From Haloquadratum walsbyi C23 (lineage in GTDB: Archaea; Halobacteriota; Halobacteria; Halobacteriales; Haloferacaceae), in the NCBI RefSeq assembly GCF_000237865.1, contig NC_017457.1, positions 30,001-62,000 of the forward strand: 32,000 bases of DNA, given 5' to 3'. Below are positions 5,697 to 32,000 of the stretch, in pieces; position 1 is the first letter of the stretch; each line of letters begins with the position of its first letter. The translations under genes were made by a program, and so were the position numbers. The notes under the pieces are model-generated. The model saw only the letters and a program-made list of their open reading frames with translations, was not told the DNA's origin and ran no database searches.

Positions 5697-5725
5697 TATG
5701 AGTAAATCCATTAAATATAAATAGT

Positions 5726-6610: not shown

Positions 6611-6811
6611 CACTGTCTAATAGATAGCCTTACTATTTCAAGTAATCCTCGATCTCACTACGCTACGTTGGATCAGTGCGTTCCTTCGTTGAATTATTTT
6701 TAGTAGTATATATTTGCGTGTCTCAATAACCGGTAACGCACCCGTTGGAGCGAGATCTTCGATAGAGTACAGCTAACAGTCTGCGGTATGTGATTGTCGT
6801 CTTCTTTCTGT

Positions 6812-6998: not shown

Positions 6999-7194
6999 CA
7001 TGTTAGATATTATCACTTATATAAAGTCGATAATTGATGAGAAACTATTAGACAATTGAAATACAGACAACTAACACTTTTCGAACCATTCACAACGAGG
7101 GATCTGAATGAAAAAATATAGTTCAACGCATGATGCTGAATTCCGAAACCCTAAGATATTATTCGAAGGAAACATTAGAGCCGACTATATTATT

Positions 7195-12356: not shown

Positions 12357-12522
12357 ATTTCGGTTATCTGCTGCGTCAGCTTCGATAGATTCGTACTTCT
12401 TGATATTAATCTGAGTTGTTACATTGCATAATGTGACTACATATCAACATCATAAAATTCTGCATTCAACACGAGGCAAAGTGCCATTATACTTTTATTA
12501 AAAGATGAAAAATTAGAATAAC

Positions 12523-12861
12523 ATGACGCAAATAGATAATCAAGGAACTCTCAGTGAAACATTTTTTCAGGATTTGACACAACGGCAGGAGGCTTTGTTT
12601 GGTGTGCTAGCAGATTCCGGTGAATGGGTCCTTGGACCAGAACTTCGTAAGCGAATGAGAGATAGACACAATGTTCCGATGGATGAGAGTGGACAAGCTC
12701 TTGCTGGAGTTATCTCTGGTATCACTCAAAAATACAGTGAGAGTGAGAGAGACGCCCTGCTACAGAGAAGATGGGCAGAAACAGATGTTGAATTTCGTAT
12801 CGGAGAGTATCGAATTCAGGAGGCACACAGAGATCAGATCCGTGACCGTCTCAGTAAGTAG
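12523..12861 (+). CDS. hypothetical protein, paralogue of 11898-12356
   Basis: LTQRQEALFGVLADSGEWVLGPELRKRM...ALAGVISGITQKYSESE follows the same pattern as the upstream ORF. Confidence 0.6.
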   Translation: MTQIDNQGTLSETFFQDLTQRQEALFGVLADSGEWVLGPELRKRMRDRHNVPMDESGQALAGVISGITQKYSESERDALLQRRWAETDVEFRIGEYRIQEAHRDQIRDRLSK

Positions 12862-13622
12862 AGTAGCATTGACTGTGGATTTGAGTATTTACCAGAACAC
12901 ACGCTCAAAGAAACCGTCGATCAAGATATGGTCAAATTTAGATCGTTATTCCATTCGGGCAGATACTTTTCACCGATAACATGACTTCAGAGAAGTAGCC
13001 CGTCAGGAGTTTAATTTAGACTTCGCAGCTAGAGGTTGGGACTCTTATATAAATATATTCTCACAATCCTATCTAACTATTATATAAGGCTAATTGAGAG
13101 ACATCAGTGAGTTGAATAGAGGAGTAGTAATTGTTGAACAGTTATATCGGCTCAAGGACGCATAGATTGCAGATATATTCTCGATGCTGATACTATACGT
13201 GCAGGAGCAATATTGCTACTCACATTAATCTAGAACCGTTCTTGATTCAATATGCTTTCTGCTGGTTCCCAAGACACACTGGACATGATACTGATAGGCA
13301 TGAACTATGAGATAGTTTCTATCAACTAAGACTCCATCTTTCGTGAGAATAACCCATCTATGTACTACGCCGTGAGGTGCGTCTGGTTTCGATTAGCAGT
13401 ATGTGCTGAGAAATAAAGAACAAATAAAAATTACCGTGTGTATCCAAACAAATCTATACCTGACAACTTTCTCAATGTTTCCTGACAGTGATACCATCCC
13501 CATAATGACAGTATTAATTCTACCTGCTAGATTATCTGCGATTACAGCCACAGTGTGCTTGTCAATGTATCCTGCTGGGTCGATAGGAGACTTTACTGGA
13601 GCAATTCATGCTCACGTCAATA

Positions 13623-13675
13623 GAGCCTTATGTAATTAATTGCCCCGTATGTTATTCATATGTTACATAAGGCTC
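13623..13675. repeat. hairpin family member 3 (gagccttatgtaa-N27-ttacataaggctc), solo
   Basis: Perfect 13-bp arms. The outer arm bases differ from member 1 but stay complementary. Confidence 0.8.
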
Positions 13676-14334
13676 AACAGAAAATAACTCGCTGACTGGT
13701 CAGCACTCATATCGGGAGAGATAGTCCAAAAATTGCGTATATTAAAAAGGTGAATGTGTGATCCGATAGGATCCAAGTCGTTGACTCGAAGCTAATCAAT
13801 GATATGGATATATCTGGATCAGATGAGCAGCGTGTCATGTCTGAGATACACGATCTACCGCTTTGTGTTTCAACAAACCAATTCGGATCCAGGAGAGTCT
13901 CCATAGATATGTTAGTGCTAAATGACACTGAGCGGACACAAGAATAATTAATTGAGCACCTCTCGACAGTTGGATGTAAATTCGAAGTGCCGCCAGATCA
14001 AAAATAAATTACACTAATAGGATCAGGAGCCGATTGGAGTGACTGATCGTTAACATTCAGTAAGTGTTTATGAGATATAATAAGAGAATAGATGAAATCA
14101 ATTATTCTCTTCGTATGCTCGAAGGGGAGAATCTTATCGGACCATCCAGTCAAGATGCAACCACAACTTGAAAAACGGACAAATTTATTGCGGAAGTGAA
14201 TACTAAAATTGATTAGATTGAGAACATGCTCATTGAATGTAAATTGGAGAGTTAGTGAACAGTAAATACCAGTAACAAAGGTTGAGACTAGCTTTACTGA
14301 CCGATGAGTGCTCCGTACGTGGGAAACTTAACTC

Positions 14335-14640
14335 GATTATAGAATAAGGTAGTCCCACTAACACTGTTGTTAGTGGCGAATTAGGTGTGTATGTAAGAAA
14401 GTAAGTAAATATAACGTTAGAAAAGGTAGTCTATGATCTAACTGAACTATACTAATACAACTACACTTTACTTCTACACAACTTTACTTTCGTTGAGAGG
14501 GTGTAATTGCGTCTTTTTCGATGCTCACTAACACCAATACCAATTTGGGCACTAACAACAGTGTTAGTGCGAGTTACTAGTTCAGTAAATGTAACTATAT
14601 CTATCTTACTTACAAAGTATAAATATTTTCCGTCGATATG
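14335..14640 (-). repeat. ~300-bp non-coding repeat, copy 3 (inverted)
   Basis: Reverse complement of the copy 1 core and its flanks. Palindromes at 14355-14376 and 14549-14570. A partial hairpin half (ttacataaag) lies at about 14719-14728. Confidence 0.9.
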
Positions 14641-15064
14641 ATGAAGATTTTCAACTATACATGTCGTTCCTAATCTGCTGAAGTTTGTTTAATGAGTTGT
14701 ATCTATTTCGTCTAATTATTACATAAAGTATAATTAGCTTTCATGTTCCAAATAGGAGAATGATTCCGAACCCGAGTGTAAATATCGGTATTGGGATTTG
14801 AGACGAGTGCAGCTGTTCATGATTTGAGCAATTGAGGGCGTGATCATGGTCACGACGAGGATACTGTTGTATCACGAAAGGAACAGTCCGGCATGAGTTG
14901 AGATCTTTTCAGCAATCAACATGCCCTCGGGAAACTACTCCTGTTGCTCAGAGAGATGAGTTCCTGTTTCAAAATCAAATTAAACAACTACTGAACTTAG
15001 ATCATATTCTCTGTCCTGATCGATTCCATGTGCTGAGAAATTCATTAGAATTACCAGAAAATAA

Positions 15065-15598
15065 TCATTCATACTCGTTGATATATTCCTCGACATTGAT
15101 GTCAAACTCTGCTTCAAGACTCCGCCGCAGTCCATAGATATACGGACGCACATGATGATACATGTTCTGCTGGAGTTGGTCTATTTCATTACTTTCATCG
15201 CTTTTTATTATGTTCTCTTGACCACGACCACGGTCATCAGCGTCTGTGTTCATCTTTGCATTGGTGATAGCATTGAGTCGGCTCGTTAATTGATCGAGTT
15301 GTTCTTCGATGTGAGTAAATCTGGATTCAACGTCTGGGTGAATCGGCTCTGGAATTTCACCATCGATATCTATGTCTTCGCCTTTGGGAGTCAGCACTGC
15401 TTTGTTGACTCTTTTGCCACCACGTGTCTGTTGAGATTTCTCTACATCTATTAGATTGAGTTTAGAAAGTTTTGAATATCGATATGTGATGTCATTGTTA
15501 CTCAATCCGGTGATATATCTGATCTGTGTAGTCGTTGCCTCGCCGTATCGCTTGATTGCTTCCAGCATCTTCTTCGATTTGTGATCTAAATGTTTCAT
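15065..15598 (-). CDS. winged-helix DNA-binding protein with C-terminal coiled-coil region
   Basis: LEAIKRYGEATTTQIRYITGLSNNDITYRYSKLSKLNLIDV...GGKRVNKAVLTPKG is a MarR/ArsR-like wHTH pattern. It is followed by a helical acidic tail. Confidence 0.7.
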   Translation of the reverse strand: MKHLDHKSKKMLEAIKRYGEATTTQIRYITGLSNNDITYRYSKLSKLNLIDVEKSQQTRGGKRVNKAVLTPKGEDIDIDGEIPEPIHPDVESRFTHIEEQLDQLTSRLNAITNAKMNTDADDRGRGQENIIKSDESNEIDQLQQNMYHHVRPYIYGLRRSLEAEFDINVEEYINEYE

Positions 15599-15987
15599 AA
15601 CTAATACTTCGAACGCATTTCCTATTGCTTTTCTTATTGTGAGTGACTCAGGAGATAATTTTTAAGACCAGATTTAGAAAGATTCAGTTTTGTTGTCCGA
15701 CTACCGACGGAAAAACAGTAGTTTCCGTCCTCTTTTGACTACTAGCGAGCCCCGTAATATCTGTCTGCACTTCACAACCTCATAGCACATAGATATCAAC
15801 CAAAATAATCATCGTAACAAAAGATATCTCTGTGATATGTTTAATTCATCTTCCACAAGAACAGCATAATACTCCTCTAGTAAATTCTATCTTAACTTCA
15901 ACGCAGCTATATGAAGACCTGATGAGTAACCTACCATCATAACTTGTGGTGTGTACATTGCCATCAAATGAGAATCACTCTTGACTA

Positions 15988-16242
15988 TCACTGCTCCCAA
16001 TGAAGAAGATACAGAAGATAGACACTTGCACCAACAATAGTAGCACCAACCACAATCAAAACTAAGCTGGCTAAATCACTTATATGAAAAGCGAGTTGAA
16101 CTGTCTGAAGACCAACAAGAATGGTAAATACCGCTATTATCGTCCAAAATACAGTTGAGATAATTGATACCCCTGCTTCATGCACCCCTTCCCTTACAGC
16201 ACGACGAATATCAGGCTCAGTGAGGTCATCAGACTCACTCAT
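15988..16242 (-). CDS. small membrane protein (2 TM)
   Basis: Acidic N-terminus, then two hydrophobic helices (VSIISTVFWTIIAVFTILVGL and LASLVLIVVGATIVGASVYLLYLL). Confidence 0.6.
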   Translation of the reverse strand: MSESDDLTEPDIRRAVREGVHEAGVSIISTVFWTIIAVFTILVGLQTVQLAFHISDLASLVLIVVGATIVGASVYLLYLLHWEQ

Positions 16243-16396
16243 GAATTATTCTGATGTATGAATTCTCCCCGCCTGTAATTAAAATGAATGATCATCGTCT
16301 GGCGTAGAATATCCTCTACGATACTCCCACAATTCAAAATAGTTTTCAATACAAAGTGTCGATAATTATATATAAGATAAATTATACTATACTAGT

Positions 16397-16651
16397 ATGA
16401 CGACTGATCCAGATGAATATAGTCTCGATCCACATGATCTTGCCCCAGAATCAATCGCTAAACGTGTGCTAGAAAATAACGACTACAGGTGCGCATTCAA
16501 CCAGGTAAAGATACATCCAGAAGATGCGATGGTTGTCTATCGAACTCCAGCAATCCGACGTGATGAAGACGAGTATTCAGTCGAGCAACTACAGAAAATG
16601 TCTGATGAGGAATTGGATGAAATATTTTATGTAATTCTTGGAGGGGCTTAA
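16397..16651 (+). CDS. small acidic hypothetical protein (84 aa)
   Basis: ATG start, D/E-rich. An AT-rich promoter-like region lies immediately upstream. Confidence 0.55.
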   Translation: MTTDPDEYSLDPHDLAPESIAKRVLENNDYRCAFNQVKIHPEDAMVVYRTPAIRRDEDEYSVEQLQKMSDEELDEIFYVILGGA

Positions 16652-17197
16652 TCACTCCCTCTCAATTATTTTCCTTATTTCTCATAAAACTTAGAATCTA
16701 GAGGTATGCGTGATCCAACTCACACAGAGCTAATATAAGATCAAATCCTGAATTTCTCTAGGAAATCTGATTCAACGACGAAGCTCCTTGGTTCAATTAA
16801 GATACTTAATGAGTGTATATCACGAAATTTTCTTTTTCCGAATGAGTGTTCCTCTCGAAAATATTTGTCTAACATAATAGATCTCAGGCAACTTTTTTAT
16901 TAACATCGTTATTAAAAAACGATGGCAAATTACATCCAGCTGACAATTATTATTAAATTTGGATAGCACCCAAGATAGTGCAATCAAATAACTCAAGCAG
17001 GTAAGCAGGTAAGCAGCTGCACGAGGGCTGAATATAAGTAGAGCAATAATAAGCAATTCAACACAAGACAGATCAAAAGTATATGATGATTAAGCTTTGA
17101 TTTATGCAGTAACCACTCAAATAATAAATTGTGAAGCGTAATCGTATGACAGTTGGATACCAACTGACCACAGGAATCAGAAAAATAATGGAATAAT

Positions 17198-17350
17198 ACG
17201 ACTGTTGAATACGAACCAACTGAAGAGACTGAGAAAATACTACAAAAAATAGACGAAGGATGGACTGAAGAAAGAAGTGAGATTATTACAGACATATTAG
17301 AGTATTTTCATTTAAATTATACTGAATGGAAAAACGCAGATAGACGTTGA
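17198..17350 (+). pseudogene. start-less acidic coding remnant (...EGWTEERSEIITDILEYFHLNYTEWKNADRR*)
   Basis: Open frame with no start codon. It shares the motif ITDxxEYxxxY with a second remnant at 18023-18163. Confidence 0.3.
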
Positions 17351-17606
17351 GAATTATTCCATTTTATCTTTGATGACGATCGTGATAATGAGTGAGAACC
17401 TTACAAAAGTTGTTGAGATATTCCAAACTAGATAATTAGTTGAGAGGCTAAAATTAGCAAATTTTTATTAGAGCCATACCAATCCACATCGTTACAACTT
17501 TTTCAGCTAGTCTGATCTGAGAGCCCATATTCGTAAAAAGAGAACAAGAAAGGAAGAATATAATTAGTGAGAGGCTTACGAAAGTCTTGAAAGTATAAGA
17601 TCGAAT

Positions 17607-18010
17607 AATATTTTTTTTCGTCTCTATATACACAGAGGGTGTGAGTGTTCCCTCCAGATTTCTAAAACATTAAAAACAGACGTCTCAGCCAATTTTAAAA
17701 ATTTACATATTGAAAATATTACTTCCTACTACTACTACTACTACTACTATACTACTAATTATATACTAAACTACTTACTACTACTAAATAAGTTGTTACG
17801 TTTGTGATCTAATATGTAAGGTCAAAATATGGCTGCAGATTCTCAGTGAAATAATTCGTTTTTCAGTCTAAATTATTAGTTTTGCATGAATCCCTTTATC
17901 TGTATTCTGTGCGACTCTCATATGGTAGTACCGTAAGAATCTTATAATTTAGTAAGCTCTCAGTTCAGAGAGTTATACCCTCCCCACATATAGAGACGTA
18001 AAAAAATATT
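17607..18010. mobile_element. MITE-like ~400-bp element with ~35-bp terminal inverted repeats
   Basis: The left end is aatattttttttcgtctctatatacacagagggtg (17607-17641). The reverse complement of the right end (17976-18010) is aatatttttttacgtctctatatgtggggagggta. There is no ORF inside. Confidence 0.5.
17727..17747. repeat. (TAC)7 microsatellite with degenerate TAC-rich extension to about 17790
   Basis: Direct reading gives tac x7, then tatactactaatt...ctacttactactactaaat. Confidence 0.9.
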
Positions 18011-18022
18011 TTGAACAGTTGA

Positions 18023-18163
18023 AATCTTCACCTGAGATTAGAGCAAAATATTACTGATGCATTCGAATACGAAATACGATATTCTAACTTTATTATATCA
18101 TCCAACACAGAAACTGCTCAAATTGTTGAGCGATATTATTCTGACATGCTTGAATTAGAGTGA
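18023..18163 (+). pseudogene. start-less coding remnant (...EQNITDAFEYEIRYSNFIISSNTETAQIVERYYSDMLELE*)
   Basis: Open frame with no start codon. Related to the 17198-17350 remnant. Confidence 0.3.
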
Positions 18164-18392
18164 TACTTTTCTAAAACTTACAATCGAATCAAATTCAATT
18201 GCTATTGTATGCATAAAAATAACCTGAAATTCATAGAATTTAAATTCAATAGCGAATTTATTGTTATAACAAAGAAGCGAGTAAACCCGGAAATTAAGCT
18301 CCGAATATGTGAATTTGGGAGTGTGATTTAATTTGCAGAATATTGTGGATTAGTTCTTACTAAATAACTATTTTATACAAAATGCCGATATA

Positions 18393-19547
18393 TTGATGGG
18401 GGATGTATGCGTTTTCGTAATTGTTATGACAGTATCACAACGGGCAACAGTGTATCGTAATGAGTCTTCAGAAAGGTTTACAGCTACGTTAAGCTCTGGA
18501 GAGGTCGCATATATTACTAATAGAGCAAATAAGGCACATACTAAGGGTTTAGTTGTTTATGAAGTGCTTCATTTGGCACATTCGTATCTTTCAGACCGTT
18601 TAACCTTTGTTGAGGATCATATATATAAAACTCTTGCAGATGTTATCGGAGTCACTCAGTCTGATGATGTTCGCAAAAAAAATATTTTCAATGAAGAAGC
18701 TGATCCAATAAAGCAGTTGAAATATGAAGCTGACTCTGCAGATTACAGTGATTATTCTGAGATGAAGAAAACGGTGATATATCTTCCTGTAAGTACCATT
18801 GAAACACTGAAGGAAGAAAATGGACCGAGAGGCGTATCTCAAGCGATTTCTGAGGCAATTCATCAGGTTATCCGGATGCCATACAATACGAGATTTAACA
18901 AGCTCACAGTTATTGATCAATTCATCAAAATAAACAATGGAGATAAGGATAATATTGAGGAACTGCATCCTTTTGTTGAGTTGTTAATTGATGGAGATGA
19001 TGAAGAGTATAATATCAGACTATCTGATCGTATTAATTCTGACAGAGAAAGAGAGGATCAACTCTTAAGAGAAGATCTTAAACGAAGGGGGCTTAATTTA
19101 GACAGTCAGACGCCATGGGTTGGATTAAAACCAGATATGACATTCAATTTGAATGTACTTCGGCGTATAATTAGACTTGGTGTACTAAAGCAAAAGAAAG
19201 ATGTGAGAGTTAGAGCCTTGAAAAGAGCGATAGAGGGTTCTCAAAAGTTGAGGGAAGATTGTGGTCAAAATACCCAGCTCTATGTATATAAACGTGATTT
19301 TTATGATCACATTGAGGAAATTTTTGACTGCTCTAGACCAACCGCAAAAAGTTATGGCGATGCAGTTTTTCAGTCATTTAGAAGTGTCTTAGGCGTGTAC
19401 GATGATGGTAAGCTTGAAAGATTAATTGTTAAGCCATATAATTCAAGATCAAAATTTACACGAACGGGAATGGGTCAACCTTACGCATGTCTCAATAAGA
19501 AAAACTCAAATTATTCAATAGAGTATAAGCATAAATTCCTTGAGTGA
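18393..19547 (+). CDS. hypothetical protein with two RHH-like segments (384 aa; likely start a few codons downstream)
   Basis: Long ORF in a very AT-rich island. It is K/N/I-rich and much less acidic than its neighbours. FTATLSSGEVAYITNRA...VVYEVLHLA and KKTVIYLPVSTIETLKEE...VSQAISEAIHQVI fit a beta-helix-helix pattern. Confidence 0.7.
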   Translation: MMGDVCVFVIVMTVSQRATVYRNESSERFTATLSSGEVAYITNRANKAHTKGLVVYEVLHLAHSYLSDRLTFVEDHIYKTLADVIGVTQSDDVRKKNIFNEEADPIKQLKYEADSADYSDYSEMKKTVIYLPVSTIETLKEENGPRGVSQAISEAIHQVIRMPYNTRFNKLTVIDQFIKINNGDKDNIEELHPFVELLIDGDDEEYNIRLSDRINSDREREDQLLREDLKRRGLNLDSQTPWVGLKPDMTFNLNVLRRIIRLGVLKQKKDVRVRALKRAIEGSQKLREDCGQNTQLYVYKRDFYDHIEEIFDCSRPTAKSYGDAVFQSFRSVLGVYDDGKLERLIVKPYNSRSKFTRTGMGQPYACLNKKNSNYSIEYKHKFLE

Positions 19548-20057
19548 ATGCACTCGATAAGGATCATCGATGAACATCGATAGTGTATGAATTTGCTAAA
19601 TTTTTGTGTTGAAAATTATAATTTAAAACATGCATATATGTTTAATCTCGAAGTTCTTACACGGTTTTAGATGTTTTACGGTCTTGTCACAACATATATA
19701 CATAGATATTTCCCTTCTTTATTGAGGTATTGAGTCTGTGAGTCGTTTCTGGTGCTTGCACTCACTGTCCCCGTGAGAGACCGGAAGAGGTGAGCAAAAA
19801 ATTGGACGACTGATAGATATTATATCCGCAATTTATTTTAATGTGACATTAGGAACCCCGTGCGAATTGATCATGATACCTGTAATATCTTCAGAATTGA
19901 ATCCAGCAGTATCGTGGAATTCACCATACACAGCCAATTCGTATACCGTCTATATATTCATTCCTGACATCTTTTTGCACTCGACGATGCATTCTGATGC
20001 ATATCGTCACGACAAGATCAGCACAACACAGCTAAGTCGTTGTACTAGCATATCTGA

Positions 20058-21106: not shown

Positions 21107-21703
21107 GTGGCGATAGCCCCCCAAATTGTACTTCAATCTAGAGATAGCAGACATCATATGGGAGACGGAACAGCCGGGTCTTCAGTTCAGTATCAGACCC
21201 CGACACATGAGTATCTACGTCAGCGATTACAACAGATGGCTCCGGAGGCGTTCGAGGAGTTTGTAAGCGATGTGTGGGAGTTTCTTGGCTGGAATACACG
21301 TGTTGTTGGGAAACCAGGGGATCGTGGTATTGATGTCGTCGCTGTGACCGGTGATCAAAAGCAACTGATTCAAGCTAAGCGGTATGGACCATCGACATCG
21401 GTCGGGAGCCCTGAAGTCCAACAGTATGCAAGCCTCCGACTGCAAGAAGAGAATGTCGATCAAGTAACAATCGTGACAACGGGAACGTTCTCCTGGCAAG
21501 CACGTGAACTCGCACCTGAACTCGAAGTATTGTTAGTGAACGGTGAAGAGTTGATCGAGATGATTGACGAAATTGAGGCGTTCGAAGTCTTTGACGATCA
21601 CTTTGCGGATATCGAGCTATCACGTAATGTCGACGTAGATGCTACTGAATCTCCAAGCCGGTTCCGACGACTGCTTCGATGGGTTCGCTCACTATTTTCC
21701 TGA
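21107..21703 (+). CDS. Mrr-like restriction endonuclease domain protein (likely start at ATG 21158 or later)
   Basis: FEEFVSDVWEFLGWNTRVVGKPGDRGIDVVAVTGDQKQLIQAKRYGPSTSVGSPEVQQ matches the Mrr_cat core (D...D-x-QxK). The track start at 21107 is a GTG. Confidence 0.85.
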   Translation: MAIAPQIVLQSRDSRHHMGDGTAGSSVQYQTPTHEYLRQRLQQMAPEAFEEFVSDVWEFLGWNTRVVGKPGDRGIDVVAVTGDQKQLIQAKRYGPSTSVGSPEVQQYASLRLQEENVDQVTIVTTGTFSWQARELAPELEVLLVNGEELIEMIDEIEAFEVFDDHFADIELSRNVDVDATESPSRFRRLLRWVRSLFS

Positions 21704-22362: not shown

Positions 22363-22939
22363 ATGTGATCATTATACCTATCCAACATATGCTTCTCGCT
22401 TGATAATTGAATTGTTTGTAATGTAGAAGTGAGCTACCCCGACCTACTTAGCTGTCGCAGACGGCTTTCTTGTAAAAGGAGTCCTGCCCTTGTTCCGAAT
22501 AGTACGGGAACGACTGGCAGATATCATTCTAAGTTTCCCTGTCGAAGTCCTCAGAGTGGAATTATACAGATGAAATCCCCTGAAGCCAATGGCTAAATGA
22601 GGCTCAGGACCGATCATTGATTCACAGTTGCAACTAACGTCGAAGACGACTGAGATTCTTTTTATTCTAGTGATAGTATCGGCATATGTTTTGAATAACG
22701 TCTAAATGTACGACTTACAGTCCAAAAGCCTCACAAGTTATCCACTATCTATTAGACTGGAATTACTGTAGCTAAGACTCTATTTACATATCCTAACTTT
22801 GATTAAATATAGAGCAGGTTAGCATGGAGTGAGGTAGAGAGGGTTGAGCAGTCCGATAGACTCTCAATTTGCTTAGAGCAGATAGCTGAGTCCTTTGTAT
22901 CTACGTAGGTTATTTTACTTTCAATTACGCAATGGATAT

Positions 22940-25066
22940 ATGGAAATTAGCAAACTTCTTGATCGAGTAGAGTCGAATGCTATTGTTCTGCCAGAGTTCC
23001 AGCGTGAGTTCGTTTGGAAGAACTCACAGGCAAAGGAGTTGATGAACTCACTTTTCGAAGAGTTCCCTATCGGGAGTTTGCTTACGTGGGAAACAGAGAA
23101 TCCTCCTGAAATTAAAAACGAAGCAATAGACGAAGAAAAACATGCACTTTTTGAGGTCCTACTTGATGGGCAACAACGACTGACAGTATTGTATATGTTG
23201 ATTAAAGACGAAATCCCACCGTACTATACCGAGGACGATACCGAGAATGACCCACGGGATCTTTATCTCAACGTCGGCGATGGAAAGTTCCATTTTGAAA
23301 ACAAGATGACTCGTGAAGGCGTTGAGTGGGTTAGGGTAACTGACTGTTTCAATGGTGAGGTTGATGGGGTGACTATTGCTCAGAAAAAATTAGGTGATAA
23401 GCCAGAGCCTGTGTTGGAACTTTCAAAAGAGTATAACCAACAGATCGCTCAACTCCAAAATGTCACGACTCGTAGTATCCCAGTCGAGACCCTCCCGAAG
23501 TCAGCGGATATTCATGAGGCAATCGAACTCTTTGATAAAATCAACTCACAAGGAACACACTTGAGTGATGCAGAGTTGGCATTAGCGCATATGAGTGCTG
23601 AATGGGCGTATATCCGCCGGAATATGAAACAAAAGCAGGCTGAGTTAGCTACCCAAGGATTTGAGTTCAATCTCAATTTCTATGTGAAATGCATGATTGG
23701 AACTCTCACCGAAACAATGACCTACGAACAGGTATACAACGTGTCAGAGGATGAACTCAAATCTCAGTGGTACGAATTAGCTGGTAAGGATAATAAGGAT
23801 GGTATCTTTGATTACGTGATCAACGTTCTCCAAAATGACGGACAGATTCCGTCATCAGACTACATCAACACTCGTGACGTTCTCATTCCGTTTATCGTAT
23901 ATCTGAATAAACAGGAGAAGCAACTATCTCACGACGAGAAAACGCAGTTCCTGCGGTGGCTCTACTCAGGGATGATGTGGTCACGGTACAGTGGCTCATC
24001 AGATACGACCGTGGAACACGACATTTCACTCTTGGATGGGGAGTCTCCGACTGACCAACTCATGCAGGAAATTCGTGATGAGAGAGGACGGATAGAGGTG
24101 CAGGCATCTGACTTGCAGGGACGTGGGAAACGAACACGTCGGTTCTATAATATGGTACGGACCGTAATTCGTGCGAATGATCCTGTGGACTGGAAAACAG
24201 GTGAGCCACTCAAAGGGAGTTACGAACTGGAATCCCACCACATCTTCCCAAAGAGCAAACTCTATGAAGAGTATGACTCAGGTAACTCTACACACCGGAA
24301 GCTGGTCAACGAAATTGCTAATCGTGCTTTCCTCACTCCAGCCACAAACAAACAACTGGGAGACGAACTACCAGAGAGTTATTTACCAAAAATAATCGAA
24401 GACCATCCGAGTGCATTGGATTCCCAATTCATTCCAGATAATGGAGAGCTTTGGAAGTTACAAAATTACGAAGACTTCCTCGCCAAGCGGCGGGAATTAT
24501 TAGCTGATGCTATCAATGACTATATGGAAAACTTAGTAGTCGGAGAAGAAGGAAACGAAGAACAAGAGTCAGCAGACGAACTTATCCACAAAGGTGAGAA
24601 TACTCGGATTGAGTTCAAGGAGTCTTTCCTGTACGATGTATATCGAGAGCAGGCAAATAAAGATCTAAAAAAGGAGGTAGCAAAGGAAATCTGTGCGTTG
24701 ACCAATTCCGAAGGTGGAGCTGTAGTAATCGGGGTCAAAGATGATACGAAGGAGATCAAAGGTCTCGACCGAGACTACAATTTGATGGAAAAAGGTAAGG
24801 ATTCATTTGGACTCCAATTACGACAAGAAGTATCAAACAGACTAGGACAAATGATGGCTACCGCATATACTCATGTGAGGTTTGAAGAAGTTGATGAAAA
24901 AGAAGTCTGTGTCATCTGGGTTGATGATAGTCCTAAACCTGTTTTCTTTGAAGAGGATGATAGTGAGCAGTTCTATGTTCGAACCGGCACATCAGCTCAG
25001 CCTCTGAGCATTCAAGAAGCCAATAAATACATCGACGAACACTGGAATCAAAGCCCGATAGCATAG
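22940..25066 (+). CDS. GmrSD-family type IV restriction-like protein (DUF262 + DUF1524) fused to a C-terminal AlbA_2/Schlafen-like domain
   Basis: The N-terminus has LPEFQREFVW and LLDGQQRLTVLYML (DUF262/ParB-like NTPase). The centre has ESHHIFPKS...NEIANRAFLTPATNKQL (DUF1524 His-Me/HNH-like). The C-terminus has GENTRIEFKESF...EICALTNSEGGAVVIGVKDD.KEIKGL (AlbA_2). I take ATG 22940 as the start; ttatttta lies 23-30 nt upstream, and the track start at 22895 is a TTG. Confidence 0.9.
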   Translation: MEISKLLDRVESNAIVLPEFQREFVWKNSQAKELMNSLFEEFPIGSLLTWETENPPEIKNEAIDEEKHALFEVLLDGQQRLTVLYMLIKDEIPPYYTEDDTENDPRDLYLNVGDGKFHFENKMTREGVEWVRVTDCFNGEVDGVTIAQKKLGDKPEPVLELSKEYNQQIAQLQNVTTRSIPVETLPKSADIHEAIELFDKINSQGTHLSDAELALAHMSAEWAYIRRNMKQKQAELATQGFEFNLNFYVKCMIGTLTETMTYEQVYNVSEDELKSQWYELAGKDNKDGIFDYVINVLQNDGQIPSSDYINTRDVLIPFIVYLNKQEKQLSHDEKTQFLRWLYSGMMWSRYSGSSDTTVEHDISLLDGESPTDQLMQEIRDERGRIEVQASDLQGRGKRTRRFYNMVRTVIRANDPVDWKTGEPLKGSYELESHHIFPKSKLYEEYDSGNSTHRKLVNEIANRAFLTPATNKQLGDELPESYLPKIIEDHPSALDSQFIPDNGELWKLQNYEDFLAKRRELLADAINDYMENLVVGEEGNEEQESADELIHKGENTRIEFKESFLYDVYREQANKDLKKEVAKEICALTNSEGGAVVIGVKDDTKEIKGLDRDYNLMEKGKDSFGLQLRQEVSNRLGQMMATAYTHVRFEEVDEKEVCVIWVDDSPKPVFFEEDDSEQFYVRTGTSAQPLSIQEANKYIDEHWNQSPIA

Positions 25067-25542: not shown

Positions 25543-26343
25543 TTAAACGACTCCGGGCGTCACAGCGGTTTCTTCGTTTGCCGTCACAACACCCGTGACG
25601 TCATCAGCGAGTCCATCATCGAACACAACCGCTGTTTTCCCGCCACGAGTTTCTTTAATATCCACTCCACCGTCACCAAACTGTTTCAGAAAGTCAGCGA
25701 CTCGTTGAACTGTCTGTCTGTGAACTCGTTTGTCTTCTTGTGCAGTCAAAACATCTCGAATCCGAGTCGACGTGATAGCAATCCCAGCTGGCACGGATTT
25801 TCCATAGTCTTTGATTCGACGAGCAATTGATCGAGCTCTCTTTTGATTGGAAGTGAGATTCTCTACTGCAACGTTTTCTGGAAGTGCACACACTTGCTCA
25901 AGGGAAGTGGTCTTACTGCCACTCGGAGTGGTCGTATCCTCATCGTTGTCCTCAGATTGGGACGATTGCTTTTCAGAGGAATCAGCTGTGTCTGTTTCAA
26001 CTTTCTCCTCTACTTCGGTGAGTCTCTTCCTCGCTTTTGCATCATGCTCAATATGCTCTGCGAGGTTATCTTCAAGTTGCGTAATCTTTTTCCGATCCTC
26101 AGCGTTGGACTTCGCCTGCATGGCAACTTGCTCTCGAATCTCATCAATCTCCGCTTGCTTGTTAGTAAGTGATTGTTCAATCCCCTCGACAGCTGATTCG
26201 CCAATCTGTCTAACTGTATCAACTGTTTCTTGATCAGTATCAGTCGCCTCTAGACAATCTGCTGTTTTTTGGACAAATAGTGTCAATTGCTCAATACAAC
26301 CGATGTCGGTGCTGTTAAGACAGCGCAGTTCTTGTTTATTCAT
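25543..26343 (-). CDS. hypothetical coiled-coil protein with C-terminal wHTH-like domain
   Basis: 266 aa. Long acidic helical centre (EIDEIREQVAMQAKSNAEDRKKITQLEDNLAEHIEHDAKARKRLTEVEEK). The C-terminus ITSTRIRDVLTAQEDKRVHRQTVQRVADFLKQFG...GGKTAVVF is HTH-like. Confidence 0.7.
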   Translation of the reverse strand: MNKQELRCLNSTDIGCIEQLTLFVQKTADCLEATDTDQETVDTVRQIGESAVEGIEQSLTNKQAEIDEIREQVAMQAKSNAEDRKKITQLEDNLAEHIEHDAKARKRLTEVEEKVETDTADSSEKQSSQSEDNDEDTTTPSGSKTTSLEQVCALPENVAVENLTSNQKRARSIARRIKDYGKSVPAGIAITSTRIRDVLTAQEDKRVHRQTVQRVADFLKQFGDGGVDIKETRGGKTAVVFDDGLADDVTGVVTANEETAVTPGVV

Positions 26344-26665
26344 GGAGTTGGGGCTCCTTTGTTGAGGGGGTATTCGTTAACCCCCCACCGTCGTTATTTC
26401 AACGGATACTGGTACAGTTGTCTAGAATTCCATATAAAACTTCGTCCAGTCTTTCATCATGTATCTGATGAATACATGTAAATTCATTTAATCAAAAGCA
26501 GAACAGACGTTTAAATTAACTTACTTCTCAATCGCATACAACATATCCAACTTATATCTTGATTTGTATTCACGTTTTTATGTTATCAAAATACGTTAAA
26601 CGGAGTTAATAGTGGATGATTCTTACTGAAGAAGTAAATTCAAAAGAGTATGAAACAGTTACAGA

Positions 26666-26953
26666 CTATTCTTCTGACGGTTCACTGTCCTCGACTAGCT
26701 CATTTCGAAGATCGTCGATTTCCTTTTGACGTTGTTTAAGCATCGCTTCACAATCATCACTTAATTGCCGACCATATTGTTCGAGATCATCGATAATCTC
26801 TTGATCAATTTCAGTGTCGGTTGACTCAGCAGCCTCCACGAATGCATCAACGAATTCGTCGATCGAATCTACTGCGTTCGCATCAGCAGAAGAATTACCC
26901 CCTGGATTATCAGTTTCAGACATGCTTTCTTTGGAATAGTCTATCAGTCTCAT
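26666..26953 (-). CDS. small acidic hypothetical protein (95 aa; alternative start 26923)
   Basis: D/E-rich helical sequence on the same strand as its neighbours. Confidence 0.55.
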   Translation of the reverse strand: MRLIDYSKESMSETDNPGGNSSADANAVDSIDEFVDAFVEAAESTDTEIDQEIIDDLEQYGRQLSDDCEAMLKQRQKEIDDLRNELVEDSEPSEE

Positions 26954-27114
26954 AGTCTCTTACCCTACTCTGCTGCAACATGATATTAGAAACTAAGATT
27001 TTGTGGCACTTAATCATGGCTACTAAATTCGCATTCTAAGTGTTTAGATATTAACATATGCAAGACGTAGCTCCACCAGTTGGTTACGTAGTTATATAAT
27101 AAATATCAATTTTC

Positions 27115-27585
27115 TCACCCGTGCATGTCGGCGATTTCAGCAGCCTCTGCCAAACTACATTGCACTCCACAGTATGACCTCTTCTCGTCTGGCAGAATTT
27201 CCGGAGAGATCGTGATTTCAGCGACATATCCGTCAAGTAAGATCCATGCATGGCGAGTCAATATTTTCTGCCCATTTTCAATATACTGAATGTACCCTTC
27301 GCAATATTGAACATCAGCGTCAATTTGATCCTCCATTTGCATCGCCTGCCGACAGTTTTGGAAGCATCGCTTAGGAACCGCCCCAGCATACTCTGCAAGT
27401 GTTTTGGCATCATCGTGCAAGACCGTTCCCTGTTTGACCATCTCATCAGATTTGAATTCTCGCCCGTTCTGTGCGACAAATTTGATGAAGTGTTCTTGAT
27501 CATCAGGGATGCTCTTGGCACGTAACTTGACATTAGAAATAATGGATTCTATGTCAGTGCTTTTTGAAACGAATATATTGGACAT
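27115..27585 (-). CDS. hypothetical protein with possible Cys-His (transglutaminase/papain-like) signature
   Basis: KRCFQNCRQAM...CEGYIQY...TRHAWILLDGYVAEIT resembles the G-x-C...G-Y...H-A-W-x-E...D core order of transglutaminase-like cysteine peptidases. Tentative. Confidence 0.65.
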   Translation of the reverse strand: MSNIFVSKSTDIESIISNVKLRAKSIPDDQEHFIKFVAQNGREFKSDEMVKQGTVLHDDAKTLAEYAGAVPKRCFQNCRQAMQMEDQIDADVQYCEGYIQYIENGQKILTRHAWILLDGYVAEITISPEILPDEKRSYCGVQCSLAEAAEIADMHG

Positions 27586-28168: not shown

Positions 28169-29251
28169 TTACGTTGGTAGTTCTGCATTCACTGGACCGA
28201 TATCTTCCCTGTAACGGAAGTATCCAGCTTCAGATAGCTCGTTTGCTAAGTGATGGCGATGACAAAAATGATCCTGATCTCCCTGTGGTTTTGGGAATTT
28301 TTCGATGCACATCAGTGCTGGCTTCCCAGACTCTTCGAGAAACTCACCGAACTGCTCAAATTTGTCGTCCTGATGTATACTCCACATATACCAATTTTCA
28401 AAACAATCGTGTCCAATGGCTTGCTGTTTATATGGTTCAACGATAACTCGTGGAACACCAAAGTCGGGCTTATGAATATACTCAATACCATCTATGTTTG
28501 AGAACTGATTTTCTAGTACATCTACGTTGAACTCTGGCTTGTACATTGATTCGCCGGAGGCACGGACATCGACCAAAATGTCTATTTCATTCTCCCGGAG
28601 TTCGTCAACTAACTCAGTGAATTCTTTTCCGCTGTACCCCACTGTGGCAATGGTATCATTCTTAAATCGCTCCAAACGATCACGAGCTTCGTCACGACTC
28701 CACCCGTTCTCAATGAGTCGGGTGGTAAACTCCTCCTGATCTTCTTCAGGGAGCTGAGCGATGACTAACCCTTTTCTTGCCGCTAAGTCCCCGCTCTTTA
28801 CACGTCTGTACACCGAATCAGCTAAATCCATCACCAGCGTGATTTTATCCTGAACTGTCCGTGGCGCCAACCCAGTTATATCACCAATTTCCTCTTCAGA
28901 GAGATCGTAGTCGGTGTAAAGTTCCTTGCAGAGTTCTCCGATCTCTTCATCTTTCATCTCTTTCTGCATTTTGTTCGTTTTCACAGCAAGACCACGAGCG
29001 CTTTCATCTCCGAGGTCTTTGATGGTAGCCTCAATCTCTGACCAGTTCAGACGCCGTGCAGCCTCAAGTCGATGACTTCCTGATATAACCTCATACTCAA
29101 CATCTTTTTGTCCCGACGCAGGGCGAGCGATGATAGGGTTCCATTGACCATCCTCGGCAAATGACTCTCTTATATCCTCCACATGGTCATCATCAATTTC
29201 CTCTCGAATCTGGAAGTCTGGCAAATCTATTTTGCTAAGAGCTACTTTCAT
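28169..29251 (-). CDS. ParB/Srx-like N-terminal domain plus HTH, fused to a DUF488 domain
   Basis: I take ATG 29251 (MKVALSKIDLP...) as the start. EYEVISGSHRLEAARRLNW is the ParB-type GxxR box and EEIGDITGLAPRTVQDK is an HTH. The C-terminus TIATVGYSGKEF...DILVDVRASGES.YKPEF...IEYIH.PDFGVP...ALMCIEKFP......CHRHHLA is the DUF488 pattern. Confidence 0.85.
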   Translation of the reverse strand: MKVALSKIDLPDFQIREEIDDDHVEDIRESFAEDGQWNPIIARPASGQKDVEYEVISGSHRLEAARRLNWSEIEATIKDLGDESARGLAVKTNKMQKEMKDEEIGELCKELYTDYDLSEEEIGDITGLAPRTVQDKITLVMDLADSVYRRVKSGDLAARKGLVIAQLPEEDQEEFTTRLIENGWSRDEARDRLERFKNDTIATVGYSGKEFTELVDELRENEIDILVDVRASGESMYKPEFNVDVLENQFSNIDGIEYIHKPDFGVPRVIVEPYKQQAIGHDCFENWYMWSIHQDDKFEQFGEFLEESGKPALMCIEKFPKPQGDQDHFCHRHHLANELSEAGYFRYREDIGPVNAELPT

Positions 29252-29552
29252 AACTACTTTTATACAGGATACGAAGTAAAACACTTTCTTAATAATTATA
29301 CAGTTGATACGATATGCATAGTGTGAGACATAGCTAGGCATATGCAGACGTTGATGACGTCTACTCCATGGCTCTGAAGTACTAGATGTACAGATCTTGT
29401 TCTGTCCTGATGCCTGTTTTATTATTCATTGATATATATTTATTATCTTCTGGGCTATCTATGGATAAGTATCTAAAAATCAATTAACTCAGAGTTCGGG
29501 CAGCTCTGAAATTAAGATCATATTGAGTCTTTCTCAAAATCTGGAGGCATAA

Positions 29553-30359
29553 TCAGTTCCGTTCGGCAGGATGTACAAATTCTGTACTAACCTTTGGATA
29601 CTCACTCCATAATGGGTCGTATATTGGAATGTTATCTTTCATCCATATAATATTAATAGAAATAAACGATGTTCGCTGATTATTCTGGTTCCCGACAAGA
29701 ATCCAGTGATTATAATTATTGCTATCAAATTGATAAAAACTTTCCAGCTTAGCAGCAGAACTAATATTATATTTTTCAATGGCACGATATCCGCCCCACT
29801 CTAACAAGGTTTTATTATGATATCCTTGTTGAGTTTGGCAGCTAGAACAAGTAAACTGAATCCGGATTTCTCTATCAAACTCTTCTCTTGTTTCGGGACG
29901 CCATCTTTCCATTTCCTCGAACAGCTTCGCTTGGGTCAACCCGTCACTATCATCTTCCCATTCTTTCAGCTCCAGCCCACTAATTGATTTGGGTCGTATG
30001 ATTCCAAGACTTCGACCTCTTTGTTTGATTGACTCAACGCATTCATCCTCAAGTTGGGTGAGAAGTGTAGCCCGCTTCTCACGTTGATATTCTCCCGTCT
30101 TTTTAACACAGGAAGATTGGTTTCTACGTCCCAACTTCCAACTTTCATCACGGTTATCTTTCGGGTTTCGCTTTGCCTCAACTTCAACGATGTCCCATCT
30201 TTTGAACAATTTTTTCCTAGGTTTACACGGGTAAAGTCGAATAAAGCCACGGTGTTTTGACCACGCACCAGTACAGGTAGTGAGATCTCCACCACTGATC
30301 TCTTCTGGAGCAGCTCTACCTAAAATAACGACATCTTCTAACGTTTGCGAGGGGGTCAC
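29553..30359 (-). CDS. orphan hypothetical protein (268 aa, GTG start)
   Basis: The only long frame here, and less acidic than its neighbours. It has an RWDIVEVEAK segment (a possible D...ExK), a CSSC pair and a WxLVGNQ C-terminal block. I recognise no family. Confidence 0.65.
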   Translation of the reverse strand: MTPSQTLEDVVILGRAAPEEISGGDLTTCTGAWSKHRGFIRLYPCKPRKKLFKRWDIVEVEAKRNPKDNRDESWKLGRRNQSSCVKKTGEYQREKRATLLTQLEDECVESIKQRGRSLGIIRPKSISGLELKEWEDDSDGLTQAKLFEEMERWRPETREEFDREIRIQFTCSSCQTQQGYHNKTLLEWGGYRAIEKYNISSAAKLESFYQFDSNNYNHWILVGNQNNQRTSFISINIIWMKDNIPIYDPLWSEYPKVSTEFVHPAERN

Positions 30360-30547
30360 AGGTCCACCTCATATTCACCGAGACTCACTAATGAGCTGGT
30401 GATACAAGCCATGTCAATACATAACTATGTCAATCCATATAAATTTACGTCCACAAATAACTCAATTAATACAAACGACTAATATGATTATGTTTAACTT
30501 ATAATAGGCAACACAAGTTAGATAGAGACATTGAATACGATTCCGCC

Positions 30548-30787
30548 TTATTCCTCTCCTGCTTCTTGTGCTTCGATAGTCAATTCGCCCCGTTCAGTTA
30601 GTGAATAGACCTTCCGACGCCCCTCTTGTTTTCCTTTAATATACCCAGCGTCCTCCAGCTGTTGCATATGCTCATATATCGTAGGGCCTTGCTTCCCGAG
30701 TTCATCTGCTAGCGCATAGCCGTGTCGTGGCTCTTCACGGAGCTTTTCGAGAATCTGGCGTTTTGCGTCTGTCAGCGTAAGTCCCAT
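30548..30787 (-). CDS. PadR-like winged-helix transcriptional regulator
   Basis: RHGYALADELGKQGPTIYEHMQQLEDAGYIKGKQEGRRKVYSLTERGE matches the PadR hallmark (hGY...Y..L..Le..G.i....grrk.Y.lT..G). Divergent from the methyltransferase operon. Confidence 0.85.
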   Translation of the reverse strand: MGLTLTDAKRQILEKLREEPRHGYALADELGKQGPTIYEHMQQLEDAGYIKGKQEGRRKVYSLTERGELTIEAQEAGEE

Positions 30788-30870
30788 TCAATCTTTGATT
30801 AGGATAGATAGGTAATAAGATATACATATGCAAACACCTATGCATAGATGAAATACTATTTATAATCGCA

Positions 30871-31608
30871 ATGGTGGAACAGACAAGTAACTCTATGTCC
30901 AAAAAGACTAGTAATCAAATGTATATCGTTGATCTCAGGGAAGCAGTTTCCAGTAATCAGACGCTTAGGGAGGCACTCACTGAGTCAAATAGCCTCTGGA
31001 AGCCTCTCTATAACCGCATGGGTTCTTCAGAAACTCTTTGGATCATCGTTTCAAATGAATATCGAGGCGGGAAAATGTGGCCTGCTGCGATGGCTGCAGC
31101 TGATTACATTAGAAATCAAGCGAGTTTTATTTTGAAAAATACTATTACCGTCCATAATATTTCTGATGATAATAATGTTGCGGATATGATTTCTGCGTAC
31201 AATGAAATTCTCTTTTTTGTTAAAGACAAACGTAATTATCAGTTTCACAAAGATGAAATTCGTGTCTCACATGTGTATGAAGGAAATGAGTGGGGAGGTG
31301 AGAGAGAGAAAGGAACTAGCGCATACCATGATACTGAAGTCCGTCGGTACAACCCAGACGGGAAGGATCCTGGTAATGTGTGGCTTGAGGAAGACCGATC
31401 ACAAACCCCAAATCAAGAACTTGACGAAACCAGACCGATTCCATTTGATGAAAGTATCCGCCGATGCATTCGGGTTGGGTCGCAGGAAAAAGAAAAAATC
31501 CACACCATTTGGGCCACTAATCTAGCAGATATCATAACGTGCGAAAATCGGGAATTCATTGAAGTTGATGTCGATGTCCTCCAATCTGAGTCCGAGAGAA
31601 AATCATGA
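30871..31608 (+). CDS. catalytically degenerate paralogue of a beta-class N4/N6 DNA methyltransferase (start may be ATG 30895)
   Basis: It retains MTase framework blocks: LWIIV..., FILKNTITVHN, YNEILFFVKDKRNYQFHKDEIRVSH, YNPDGKDPGNVWLEE and RPIPFDESIRRCIRVGS. No (D/S)PPY motif is present, and the DPFxGSGTT AdoMet site is replaced by HTIWATNLAD. Its stop overlaps the ATG of the next gene (ATGA at 31605-31608). Confidence 0.75.
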   Translation: MVEQTSNSMSKKTSNQMYIVDLREAVSSNQTLREALTESNSLWKPLYNRMGSSETLWIIVSNEYRGGKMWPAAMAAADYIRNQASFILKNTITVHNISDDNNVADMISAYNEILFFVKDKRNYQFHKDEIRVSHVYEGNEWGGEREKGTSAYHDTEVRRYNPDGKDPGNVWLEEDRSQTPNQELDETRPIPFDESIRRCIRVGSQEKEKIHTIWATNLADIITCENREFIEVDVDVLQSESERKS

Positions 31609-32000
31609 ATACTGTCAATTCCATTGATGCACTGAGTGTCTATTGGCAATCAAGCGAGGACATGAGTATCGTTGAGCCTGAGAGTGTTCAAACCGTCATC
31701 ACCTCTCCACCATACTGGGATCTCAAGGATTACGGGCATGAAGACCAGATTGGGACTACTGATGAATCGTATGAACACTATCATGACCGCATGAAAACTG
31801 TCTGGAAGGAGTGCTATGATGTTCTTAGAGAAGATGGGACAATGTGGATTGTTGTGGACACAGTCATGGAACGAGGTGATCTCCAGTTGCTTCCATATCA
31901 TATCATTCAGAAGGCAGAAGAAGTCGGGTTTGTGTCTCAGGATTTAGTCACTTGGTACAAGCCAACTGCTATCGCAGGGATGACAGATCGAAATATTGTG
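31605..32000 (+). CDS. DNA methyltransferase, N6_N4 (beta-class) family, SPPY motif; 5' partial, runs off the window
   Basis: Hand translation gives MNTVNSIDALSVYWQSSEDMSIVEPESVQTVITSPPYWDLKDYG...REDGTMWIVVDTV...LVTWYKPTAIAGMTDRNIV, with no stop before 32000. It is absent from the ORF track because it is open-ended. Confidence 0.85.
   Translation, partial: MNTVNSIDALSVYWQSSEDMSIVEPESVQTVITSPPYWDLKDYGHEDQIGTTDESYEHYHDRMKTVWKECYDVLREDGTMWIVVDTVMERGDLQLLPYHIIQKAEEVGFVSQDLVTWYKPTAIAGMTDRNIV

Follow-up and report, generated by a model that had tools for sequence, protein, structure and literature searches.

Here, we describe a locus on plasmid PL100 of Haloquadratum walsbyi C23, which lies at the end of a stretch of 32,000 nucleotides that was analysed as a whole (the window; NCBI RefSeq contig NC_017457.1, positions 30,001 to 62,000) and in which a fusion of ParB, helix-turn-helix (HTH) and DUF488 domains is encoded close to a pair of DNA methyltransferase (MTase) genes. 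A preliminary description of the window had listed five open reading frames (ORFs) and presented them as a single candidate for an undescribed system of DNA modification or defence. All five ORFs were found where it had placed them, coding for proteins of 390, 268, 79 and 245 residues and, from an ATG at 31605, for a protein that leaves the window (Table 1). The window end cuts the MTase operon, and an identical metagenomic contig (L002) shows the continuation, namely an MTase of 260 residues followed by the gene of a 303-residue protein. The 268- and 303-residue proteins are 100% identical to NCBI H. walsbyi proteins. In the following, the PadR-type regulator, both MTases and the 303-residue protein are referred to as module 1, and the ParB-DUF488 fusion together with the 268-residue protein, which has a predicted OB-like fold, as module 2.

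Table 1. Features of the locus, with positions counted in the window.
Feature	Position	Strand	Basis
ParB_N-HTH_ParB-DUF488 fusion	28169-29251 (ORF open to 29341)	-	Pfam, PADLOC, phrog, alignment
Predicted tandem OB-fold protein, 268 aa, PDC-M19B / phrog_25907 family	29553-30359	-	PADLOC, phrog, AF2, Foldseek
PadR/ArsR-type winged-helix regulator, 79 aa	30548-30787	-	Pfam PadR, HTH_5
Operator-like palindrome CACCTATGCATAGATG, consensus CACCTATGCATAGGTG	30835-30850		Six-locus spacer conservation
Dead N6_N4 MTase paralogue, 245 aa	30871-31608	+	Partial Pfam match, alignment
Live beta-class MTase, N-terminal 132 aa in window, full protein 260 aa	31605-32000	+	Sequence, L002 copy

The MTase genes of module 1 had been described as a copy without catalytic motifs that is translationally coupled to an SPPY enzyme, and both points are borne out. 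The 245-residue protein matches the N6_N4_Mtase profile (6.3e-09) at positions 17-183 of 221 only. An alignment of six dead with six live copies shows that the SPPY-bearing block (motif IV) is deleted and that motif I FxGxG (DPFxGSGT in the live MTases) is swapped for unrelated residues, each in 6/6 dead copies. The dead paralogue keeps a conserved insertion specific to its own family (KDxIRVxHVYEGNEWGGER.KG.SAYHD). An alternative start is at position 30919, since several homologues begin at this Met of MY(I/L/F)V; a phmmer search of the protein against PDB sequences gave nothing useful. The ATG of the live MTase lies within the stop of the dead one (ATGA overlap at 31605-31608) and SPPY can be read directly at 31704-31715. 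DPFLGSGT is also present in the 260-residue protein, whose full-length copy on L002 matches N6_N4_Mtase at 2.4e-48. The closest solved structures are TTHA0409-like 2zie, M.MboIIA, N4-cytosine MTases and CcrM. N4-cytosine methylation is the most likely activity of the live MTase, because the SPPY motif, as in beta-class enzymes, and the closest solved relatives point there.

The 79-residue protein matches PadR (2.1e-11) and HTH_5 (7e-08) in Pfam and probably controls the MTase operon. Wherever a relative of the 303-residue gene (hereafter the 300-residue family) is also present, the PadR gene is divergent from the dead MTase gene, even at loci that lack the ParB-DUF488/OB pair. The divergent control region between the two genes comprises 30788-30918 in the window. 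It contains CACCTATGCATAGATG, one mismatch away from CACCTATGCATAGGTG, a perfect 16-bp palindrome that forms the consensus across six loci of different haloarchaea and stands in register in their PadR/dead-MTase spacers. This copy is the sole site in the window with at most one mismatch; the chance expectation for matches with at most three mismatches is 0.10. A weak second match with three mismatches, probably due to chance, lies at 15251-15266 within the gene of an HTH_20 protein.

The preliminary description had recognised no restriction endonuclease at the locus. This probably has to be revised in view of the 303-residue protein, whose conserved gene lies 88 bp 3' of the live MTase gene, outside the window, and which, judging from its structural model, is probably PD-(D/E)xK-like and a candidate restriction nuclease. 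Its family is a tight one of 139 matches, and every one that carries a source organism name comes from Halobacteria; one member is named 'restriction endonuclease' by UniRef. The family invariants E88, D117 and D132-V-K134 are located on a predicted alpha-beta-beta-beta core (a helix, then three strands). The top Foldseek matches include Hjc, YaeQ, RecU, FokI, MunI, SwaI, HindIII and AvaII, and are weak (best E 0.057).

In module 2, the 390-residue ORF matches ParB_N (2.5e-12), HTH_ParB (4.3e-07) and DUF488 (6.9e-12) in Pfam, which agrees with the domain calls made earlier for this protein as well as for the PadR regulator and the N6_N4 MTases. Sequence comparison suggests that the true start of the fusion is most likely Met31 (MKVALSKIDLPDFQ), giving 360 residues, because homologues of 348-363 residues all start there. 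The same three-domain architecture is found in 134 homologues. Residues 223-377 match the PADLOC models of PDC-M19A (PDLC04505 at 8.7e-20, PDLC04504 at 4.4e-11) and the fusion matches phrog_3264 (6e-46). An alignment from haloarchaea to Sulfolobales reveals invariant residues in the ParB part (P39, I41, R43 and P44, and G58, R61, A64 and A65 of box II, GSHRLEAA) and in the DUF488 part (D228, R230, C315, E317 and C330-H331-R332). Since these key residues are invariant over such a range, both halves look functional. Burroughs and Aravind are said to have united RapZ-C, DUF488 and DUF4326 in 2023, reportedly with the prediction of DNA-end processing in virus-host conflict systems. DUF488 and DUF4326 are sister families, and the OB protein pairs with either. 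DUF4326 has been described as a rhodanese-phosphatase clade (PMC9503650). An archaeal representative of the ParB-HTH-DUF488 architecture, a different protein from the one in the window, bound CTP (PNAS 2025, PMC12704722).

The 268-residue protein had been regarded as an orphan. It has no match in Pfam or NCBIfam. It does match the PADLOC models of PDC-M19B (PDLC04508 at 8.1e-13, PDLC04507 at 8.7e-11) and phrog_25907 (2.4e-30), and with the PDC-M19A match and the CTP binding known for the fusion architecture, neither 'orphan' for the protein nor 'undescribed' for the locus can be upheld. A profile built from 67 relatives finds 1,210 cluster representatives (50% identity) at E<=1e-3, and 528 when the threshold is E<=1e-10; their length is almost always 230-270 residues. 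The AlphaFold2 (AF2) model has a mean predicted local distance difference test score (pLDDT) of 90.7 and resembles, according to Foldseek, the HIN domains of p202/AIM2, Teb1, LEF-3, RPA and hSSB1. Foldseek probabilities reach 0.99-1.0 for HIN, Teb1, LEF-3 and hSSB1, but whole-protein TM-scores are 0.2-0.4; single OB domains align at a root-mean-square deviation of 3.2-3.6. No match to OB proteins of the single-stranded DNA-binding protein (SSB) or RPA type was found at the sequence level. Because the whole-chain TM-scores are low despite probabilities up to 1.0, we call the modelled tandem fold only OB-like and infer that the protein may bind DNA.

An alignment of the OB family shows D68, R70, E72, S73, S117, G119 and Q143 to be invariant and C29, C107, C171, C174 and H181 to be nearly invariant, a pattern of polar and Cys/His residues that hints at more than passive binding. 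The earlier view that the protein is not an ordinary restriction endonuclease stands: a hidden restriction enzyme is ruled out by the confident tandem-OB model and by the lack of nuclease-fold matches, and neither Pfam nor the AF2 model reveals a nuclease domain in the window protein. Among ten unusually long relatives that were scanned, a C-terminal HNH domain occurs in five and a GIY-YIG-type MUG113/T5orf172 domain in another one. A tblastn search with the OB protein against phage genomes found cyanophage KBS-S-2A only (23.5% identity), the same search with the ParB-DUF488 fusion gave partial matches only, and an IMG/VR scan with the OB-protein alignment yielded no relative. A megablast search of the locus against PLSDB plasmids gave no match.

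A gap of 301 bp separates the ParB-DUF488 gene from the neighbouring OB gene, and an OB gene is always adjoined by the gene of a small-enzyme partner of DUF488, DUF4326 or ASCH type. The haloarchaeal partner is ParB-HTH-DUF488. The Sulfolobales conjugative plasmids pSOG1 and pBEU9E1 also encode ParB-HTH-DUF488, with an adjoining protein of 266-288 residues that the OB profile matches in hhalign at a probability of 99.3. A standalone DUF488 partner occurs in a metagenome-assembled genome of Thermoplasmata and on several metagenomic contigs, and an ASCH-like one in Chloroflexota and other bacteria. A DUF4326-containing partner is found upstream of an OB-HNH fusion and in cyanophage KBS-S-2A, where the pair sits in a replication/recombination module beside RusA, exonuclease VIII and SSB. 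On a phage-like contig, the gene of an OB-GIY-YIG fusion is preceded by that of a DUF488-containing protein and followed, 1.1 kb downstream, by a C5 MTase. In the DUF488 and DUF4326 partners of phage type, the N-terminal ~200 residues show no detectable resemblance to ParB. At the loci L018-20 and L024/25, the ParB-DUF488/OB pair is found on its own; in L018-20 the pair is a distant one (41% identity) and has no MTase nearby. The pair is a separate, ancient two-gene module.

Module 1 likewise occurs alone. In Natrinema longum and Halococcus saccharolyticus, neither ParB-DUF488 nor an OB gene is found near the PadR gene and the divergent run of dead MTase, live MTase and a gene of ~290 codons. 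Module 1 can do without module 2, because most named genomes with the 300-residue family lack any match to the OB family (PDC-M19B). The five genes of the window are therefore not the single system that had been proposed, as module 1 stands by itself in Natrinema longum and Halococcus and the pair by itself elsewhere. They represent two separable, recurrently linked modules.

The preliminary description had named an absence of co-occurrence elsewhere as the finding that would speak against it. We found both modules together in haloarchaea in five gene orders (A-E). A scan of genome contigs, for which one peptide pattern was usable, gave seven loci. Order A is that of the window and L002, and order B that of L012 and L051/52. 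In order C (L014-17 and L026), the pair has been inserted so that it separates the live MTase gene from the 300-residue gene. In order D (Natrinema sp., L005), ParB-DUF488, dead MTase and live MTase are co-directional and two OB genes are present, and in order E (L050) the pair and the MTase pair lie beside an integrase; neither order includes a PadR or a 300-residue gene. A close relative of ParB-DUF488 (66-100% identity) is encoded at eight loci with enough flank, of which seven have the dead/live MTase pair, while in the eighth (L024) another kind of N6_N4 MTase lies at a distance of 2.3 kb. In addition, 13 clusters of OB proteins (PDC-M19B) match a cluster of the 300-residue family in the size of the longest contig, which is an indirect sign that both lie on the same contig.

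The linkage is real, because five gene orders hold both modules, including two loci without the nuclease gene, and it runs in one direction: close haloarchaeal relatives of module 2 nearly always adjoin a dead/live MTase pair. The functional link between ParB and the MTases that had been suggested for the window is thus backed by comparative genomics. The two loci without the nuclease gene suggest that the pair is tied to the MTases rather than to a whole restriction-modification (R-M) system. Part of the linkage could reflect shared descent of one cassette that was repeatedly rearranged. To our knowledge, the four-gene sets without a nuclease are new, and so is the finding that linkage to dead/live MTases recurs in rearranged orders.

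Some of these loci show further features. In L012, the ParB-DUF488 and OB genes stand 711 bp apart (6290-7000); the interval is rich in G+C, is full of hairpins with arms of 8-9 bp and may represent a small inserted element. In L005, the second OB gene, upstream of ParB-DUF488 (5545-6327), encodes a divergent paralogue of the OB family (PDC-M19B at 4.5e-11), and a RAMP-superfamily protein encoded 1.1 kb downstream (11918-12946) suggests a CRISPR-type neighbour.

We read the locus as a composite, in which a controller-regulated type II-like R-M cassette and an archaeal form of PDC-M19 are repeatedly joined in haloarchaeal mobile elements, and give this reading a probability of roughly 0.5. It builds on what the sequences show, namely the domains encoded, the residues conserved, the pairing of the genes, the linkage of the modules and the operator-like palindrome. 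In module 1, a dimer of the PadR/ArsR-type protein would bind the 16-bp palindrome in the divergent promoter and time expression. The translationally coupled dead and live MTases would form a heteromer, in which the dead subunit probably provides DNA contacts and the live one methylates, and the PD-(D/E)xK-like protein might cut unmethylated DNA. In module 2, the OB protein would serve as the nucleic-acid-binding or target-recognising subunit and DUF488 as a rhodanese-phosphatase-type enzyme, whose substrate could be a phosphate or a sugar, either in DNA or in a nucleotide. In the archaeal form, the ParB part with its HTH might act as a CTP-gated clamp that loads the DUF488 enzyme on DNA. Module 2 is most likely a DNA-surveillance or DNA-processing layer of the plasmid with its action tied to methylation by the neighbouring MTase, and may thereby contribute to defence or counter-defence.

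Several points weigh against the composite reading. The Foldseek support for a nuclease fold in the 303-residue protein is weak, as its best E value shows, and the protein has no sequence match to any family in Pfam, PADLOC or, by phmmer, the PDB. The regulator is of the PadR/ArsR type and not of the Xre-type HTH of classical C proteins. Neither a parS-like nor any otherwise conserved inverted repeat is common to the nine spacers around the pair. The pair is also found in phage replication/recombination modules, and the bacterial ASCH and OB pairs lie in ordinary chromosomal neighbourhoods and not in defence islands, which fits repair or housekeeping better. PL100 is easily lost in culture, and therefore neither an addiction nor a partition effect is strong there. 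No experiment has addressed any PDC-M19 member (Payne et al., bioRxiv 10.1101/2024.01.29.577857).

The role of module 2 is where other explanations diverge. A restriction-like role is favoured by the fusions to nucleases, by the embedding that PADLOC found and by the GmrSD and Mrr genes nearby, while conjugative plasmids and phages, replication/recombination blocks, the ordinary ASCH settings and the clustering of SSBs with orphan MTases on plasmids argue for a DNA metabolism that serves the element. The pair could alternatively have a function in mobile-element establishment, counter-defence or DNA repair, with an SSB-like protein and a ParB-borne enzyme that protect or process the DNA of the element. 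In this reading, the pair would be no host defence and would adjoin MTases for the reason that brings SSBs and orphan MTases together in plasmid leading regions. We consider this possible, if on balance doubtful. It would account for where the pair occurs, namely on PL100 and Sulfolobales conjugative plasmids, next to the integrase of L050, on phage-like contigs and in the cyanophage replication/recombination module, and for the ordinary chromosomal surroundings of ASCH and OB pairs in bacteria. In plasmid leading regions, SSBs and orphan MTases belong to the most enriched families (PMC11541004), and ParB-MTase fusions are common in phages (PMC12704722). However, relatives of the OB protein are fused to HNH and GIY-YIG nucleases, its PADLOC family is found embedded in BREX, DISARM or type I R-M systems, type IV nucleases are encoded close by in the window, and for haloarchaeal plasmids the biology of conjugation and of leading regions is not established. 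If the pair were only mobile-element housekeeping, the finding would shrink to a widespread and unremarkable haloarchaeal R-M cassette with an unusual controller.

An unlikely explanation is that of one integrated system, in which the MTases mark self DNA, ParB-DUF488/OB acts as a restriction-type effector or sensor and the 303-residue nuclease is optional; such a system would found a new class of defence coupled to methylation. The loci of order D and order E, where the pair accompanies the dead/live MTases without PadR or the 300-residue gene, fit such a system, as does order C, in which the 300-residue gene comes after the OB gene and not after the MTases; the fusions of OB relatives to HNH or GIY-YIG nucleases point in the same direction. 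Against this, either module also occurs by itself, a PDC-M19B match is missing from the majority of named genomes with the 300-residue family, and neither protein of the pair at this locus has a nuclease domain. Just as tentatively, the pair could be a methylation-coupled effector, in which the CTP-gated clamp and the OB protein would sense or process DNA that lacks the mark of the dead/live MTases by means of DUF488 chemistry. In this case, that chemistry would be directed at phosphate or sugar and would differ from classical endonucleolytic restriction, and the four-gene sets of the Natrinema type (MTase pair and ParB-DUF488/OB, no nuclease) would be complete systems of an undescribed class.

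We give next to no weight to the idea that ParB-DUF488 is the partition protein of PL100 and only incidentally adjacent to an R-M cassette: the family goes by the name 'ParB/RepB/Spo0J partition protein' in databases, neither box II nor the HTH is impaired and the gene is plasmid-borne, but a plain partition role is unlikely because there is no ParA (no ParA/CbiA/AAA_31 match in Pfam among 18 window proteins, which cover every independent ORF of at least 150 residues, and no ParA-type match in the Pfam annotation of related loci), because the C-terminal dimerisation domain is replaced by a DUF488 enzyme with invariant catalytic-looking residues, because the nine spacers around the pair share no parS-like repeat and because PL100 is unstable, and it is further countered by an OB partner that is obligate and pairs with non-ParB DUF488, DUF4326 and ASCH proteins as well, and by an MTase linkage that recurs in five gene orders.

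The setting on PL100 includes further nuclease genes. The GmrSD-like and Mrr-like nucleases noted earlier beside the locus are present. The former, at 22895-25066 (+), is a 723-residue protein in which GmrSD_N and GmrSD_C are fused to a Schlafen AlbA_2 domain at the C-terminus. It matches PADLOC HEC-05 at 2.9e-43, a GmrSD-like family from the set of Hma-embedded candidates chosen for testing (Payne et al., bioRxiv 10.1101/2024.01.29.577857). The latter, at 21107-21703 (+), is a 198-residue protein with an Mrr_cat restriction endonuclease domain (3.6e-24). Two modification-dependent nucleases are hence encoded within 7 kb of an MTase operon on the same plasmid. A protein of 355 residues at 10678-11745 (+) carries an N-terminal NucS_C-like PD-(D/E)xK nuclease domain (1.6e-06). 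Between the GmrSD and ParB-DUF488 genes, 25543-27585 (-) encodes acidic proteins of 266, 95 and 156 residues, for which no significant family match was found, only weak coiled-coil-like matches and a weak match to DUF7260.

Among the remaining features of the window, an Orc1/Cdc6 initiator with AAA, Cdc6 lid and Cdc6_C domains at 988-2334 (-) fits one of the two cdc6 genes that PL100 carries by the published account, according to which this plasmid of C23 is easily lost in culture (PMC3119063). Neighbouring proteins at 5139-5696 and 5726-6610 (+) each start with a zinc-ribbon and look like paralogues. From 13000 to 20000, G+C is 0.33-0.40 and few ORFs exceed 110 residues; the plasmid average of 0.44 is well above. 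Under a maximal-order Markov model, the window contains 1 CGCG (28 expected) and 4 GGCC (28 expected), and GTAC is also low (59 observed, 87 expected); avoidance of GGCC on PL100 had been noted before (PMC3119063). The CGCG and GGCC depletion was considered as a footprint of the MTase described here, and an assignment to it is not possible.

The OB family is large (about 1,200 representatives of 50%-identity clusters) and has no Pfam model. The haloarchaeal loci provide it with a concrete context, comprising a defined MTase partner, a probable nuclease, a curable plasmid (PL100) and a tractable relative (Haloferax volcanii). Work on them could assign a function to PDC-M19 and DUF488, show a role of the ParB CTP switch outside chromosome segregation and reveal a prokaryotic MTase that depends on a dead paralogue.

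Among known systems, type II R-M systems regulated by a controller (C) protein, such as PvuII, AhdI and Esp1396I, resemble module 1 in the small DNA-binding regulator, encoded divergently from or ahead of the system, in the palindromic operator in the promoter region and in the beta-class SPPY MTase; the gene that adjoins this MTase in module 1 probably encodes a PD-(D/E)xK-like protein. They differ in having an Xre-type HTH instead of a PadR/ArsR winged helix, and module 1 has in addition a conserved, translationally coupled dead MTase paralogue. Heteromeric MTases with an inactive paralogue are known from METTL3-METTL14 and the ciliate MTA1 complex. Here, too, a dead paralogue is conserved beside an active MTase and keeps the fold, and its insertion could contact DNA; a complex of the two would be prokaryotic, in contrast to the eukaryotic ones, which are MT-A70 enzymes. 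In line with the earlier statement that the gene set does not match BREX, DISARM, Dnd/Ssp or Dpd, a PADLOC scan of eight proteins gave no match to the signature genes PglZ/BrxC, DrmA/B, DndA-E or DpdA. Unlike type IV reader-nuclease enzymes, the OB protein of the window has no nuclease domain, and fusions are found only in distant relatives.

We know of no DUF488 protein as a feature of plasmid leading-region islands. The anti-defence islands of these regions likewise cluster an SSB-like OB protein with DNA MTases on a mobile element, but they belong to bacterial conjugative elements and have canonical single-OB SSBs, whereas the locus on PL100 has a probable nuclease and a controller as well (Samuel et al., 2024, PMC11541004). 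The survey of ParB-CTPase-fold fusions covered the same ParB CTPase fold-HTH-DUF488 architecture, assigned no function to it and also found ParB fused to N6_N4 MTases in phages; it reported neither an OB-fold partner nor a link to separate MTase genes (PNAS 2025, PMC12704722). PDC-M19 is one of 145 candidates identified by 'guilt-by-embedding' in BREX, DISARM or type I R-M systems (Payne et al., bioRxiv 10.1101/2024.01.29.577857), and the term denotes a set of genes rather than a mechanism. The locus on PL100 departs from it in that the DUF488 partner has an N-terminal ParB CTPase fold and an HTH and in that the host is a type II-like cassette in archaea and not BREX, DISARM or type I. In its composition, a DUF488 protein (M19A) and a member of a family of 230-270 residues (M19B), the pair resembles PDC-M19, both models of which match the window proteins, and in L014-17 and L026 it is embedded in a similar manner, inside the R-M cassette.

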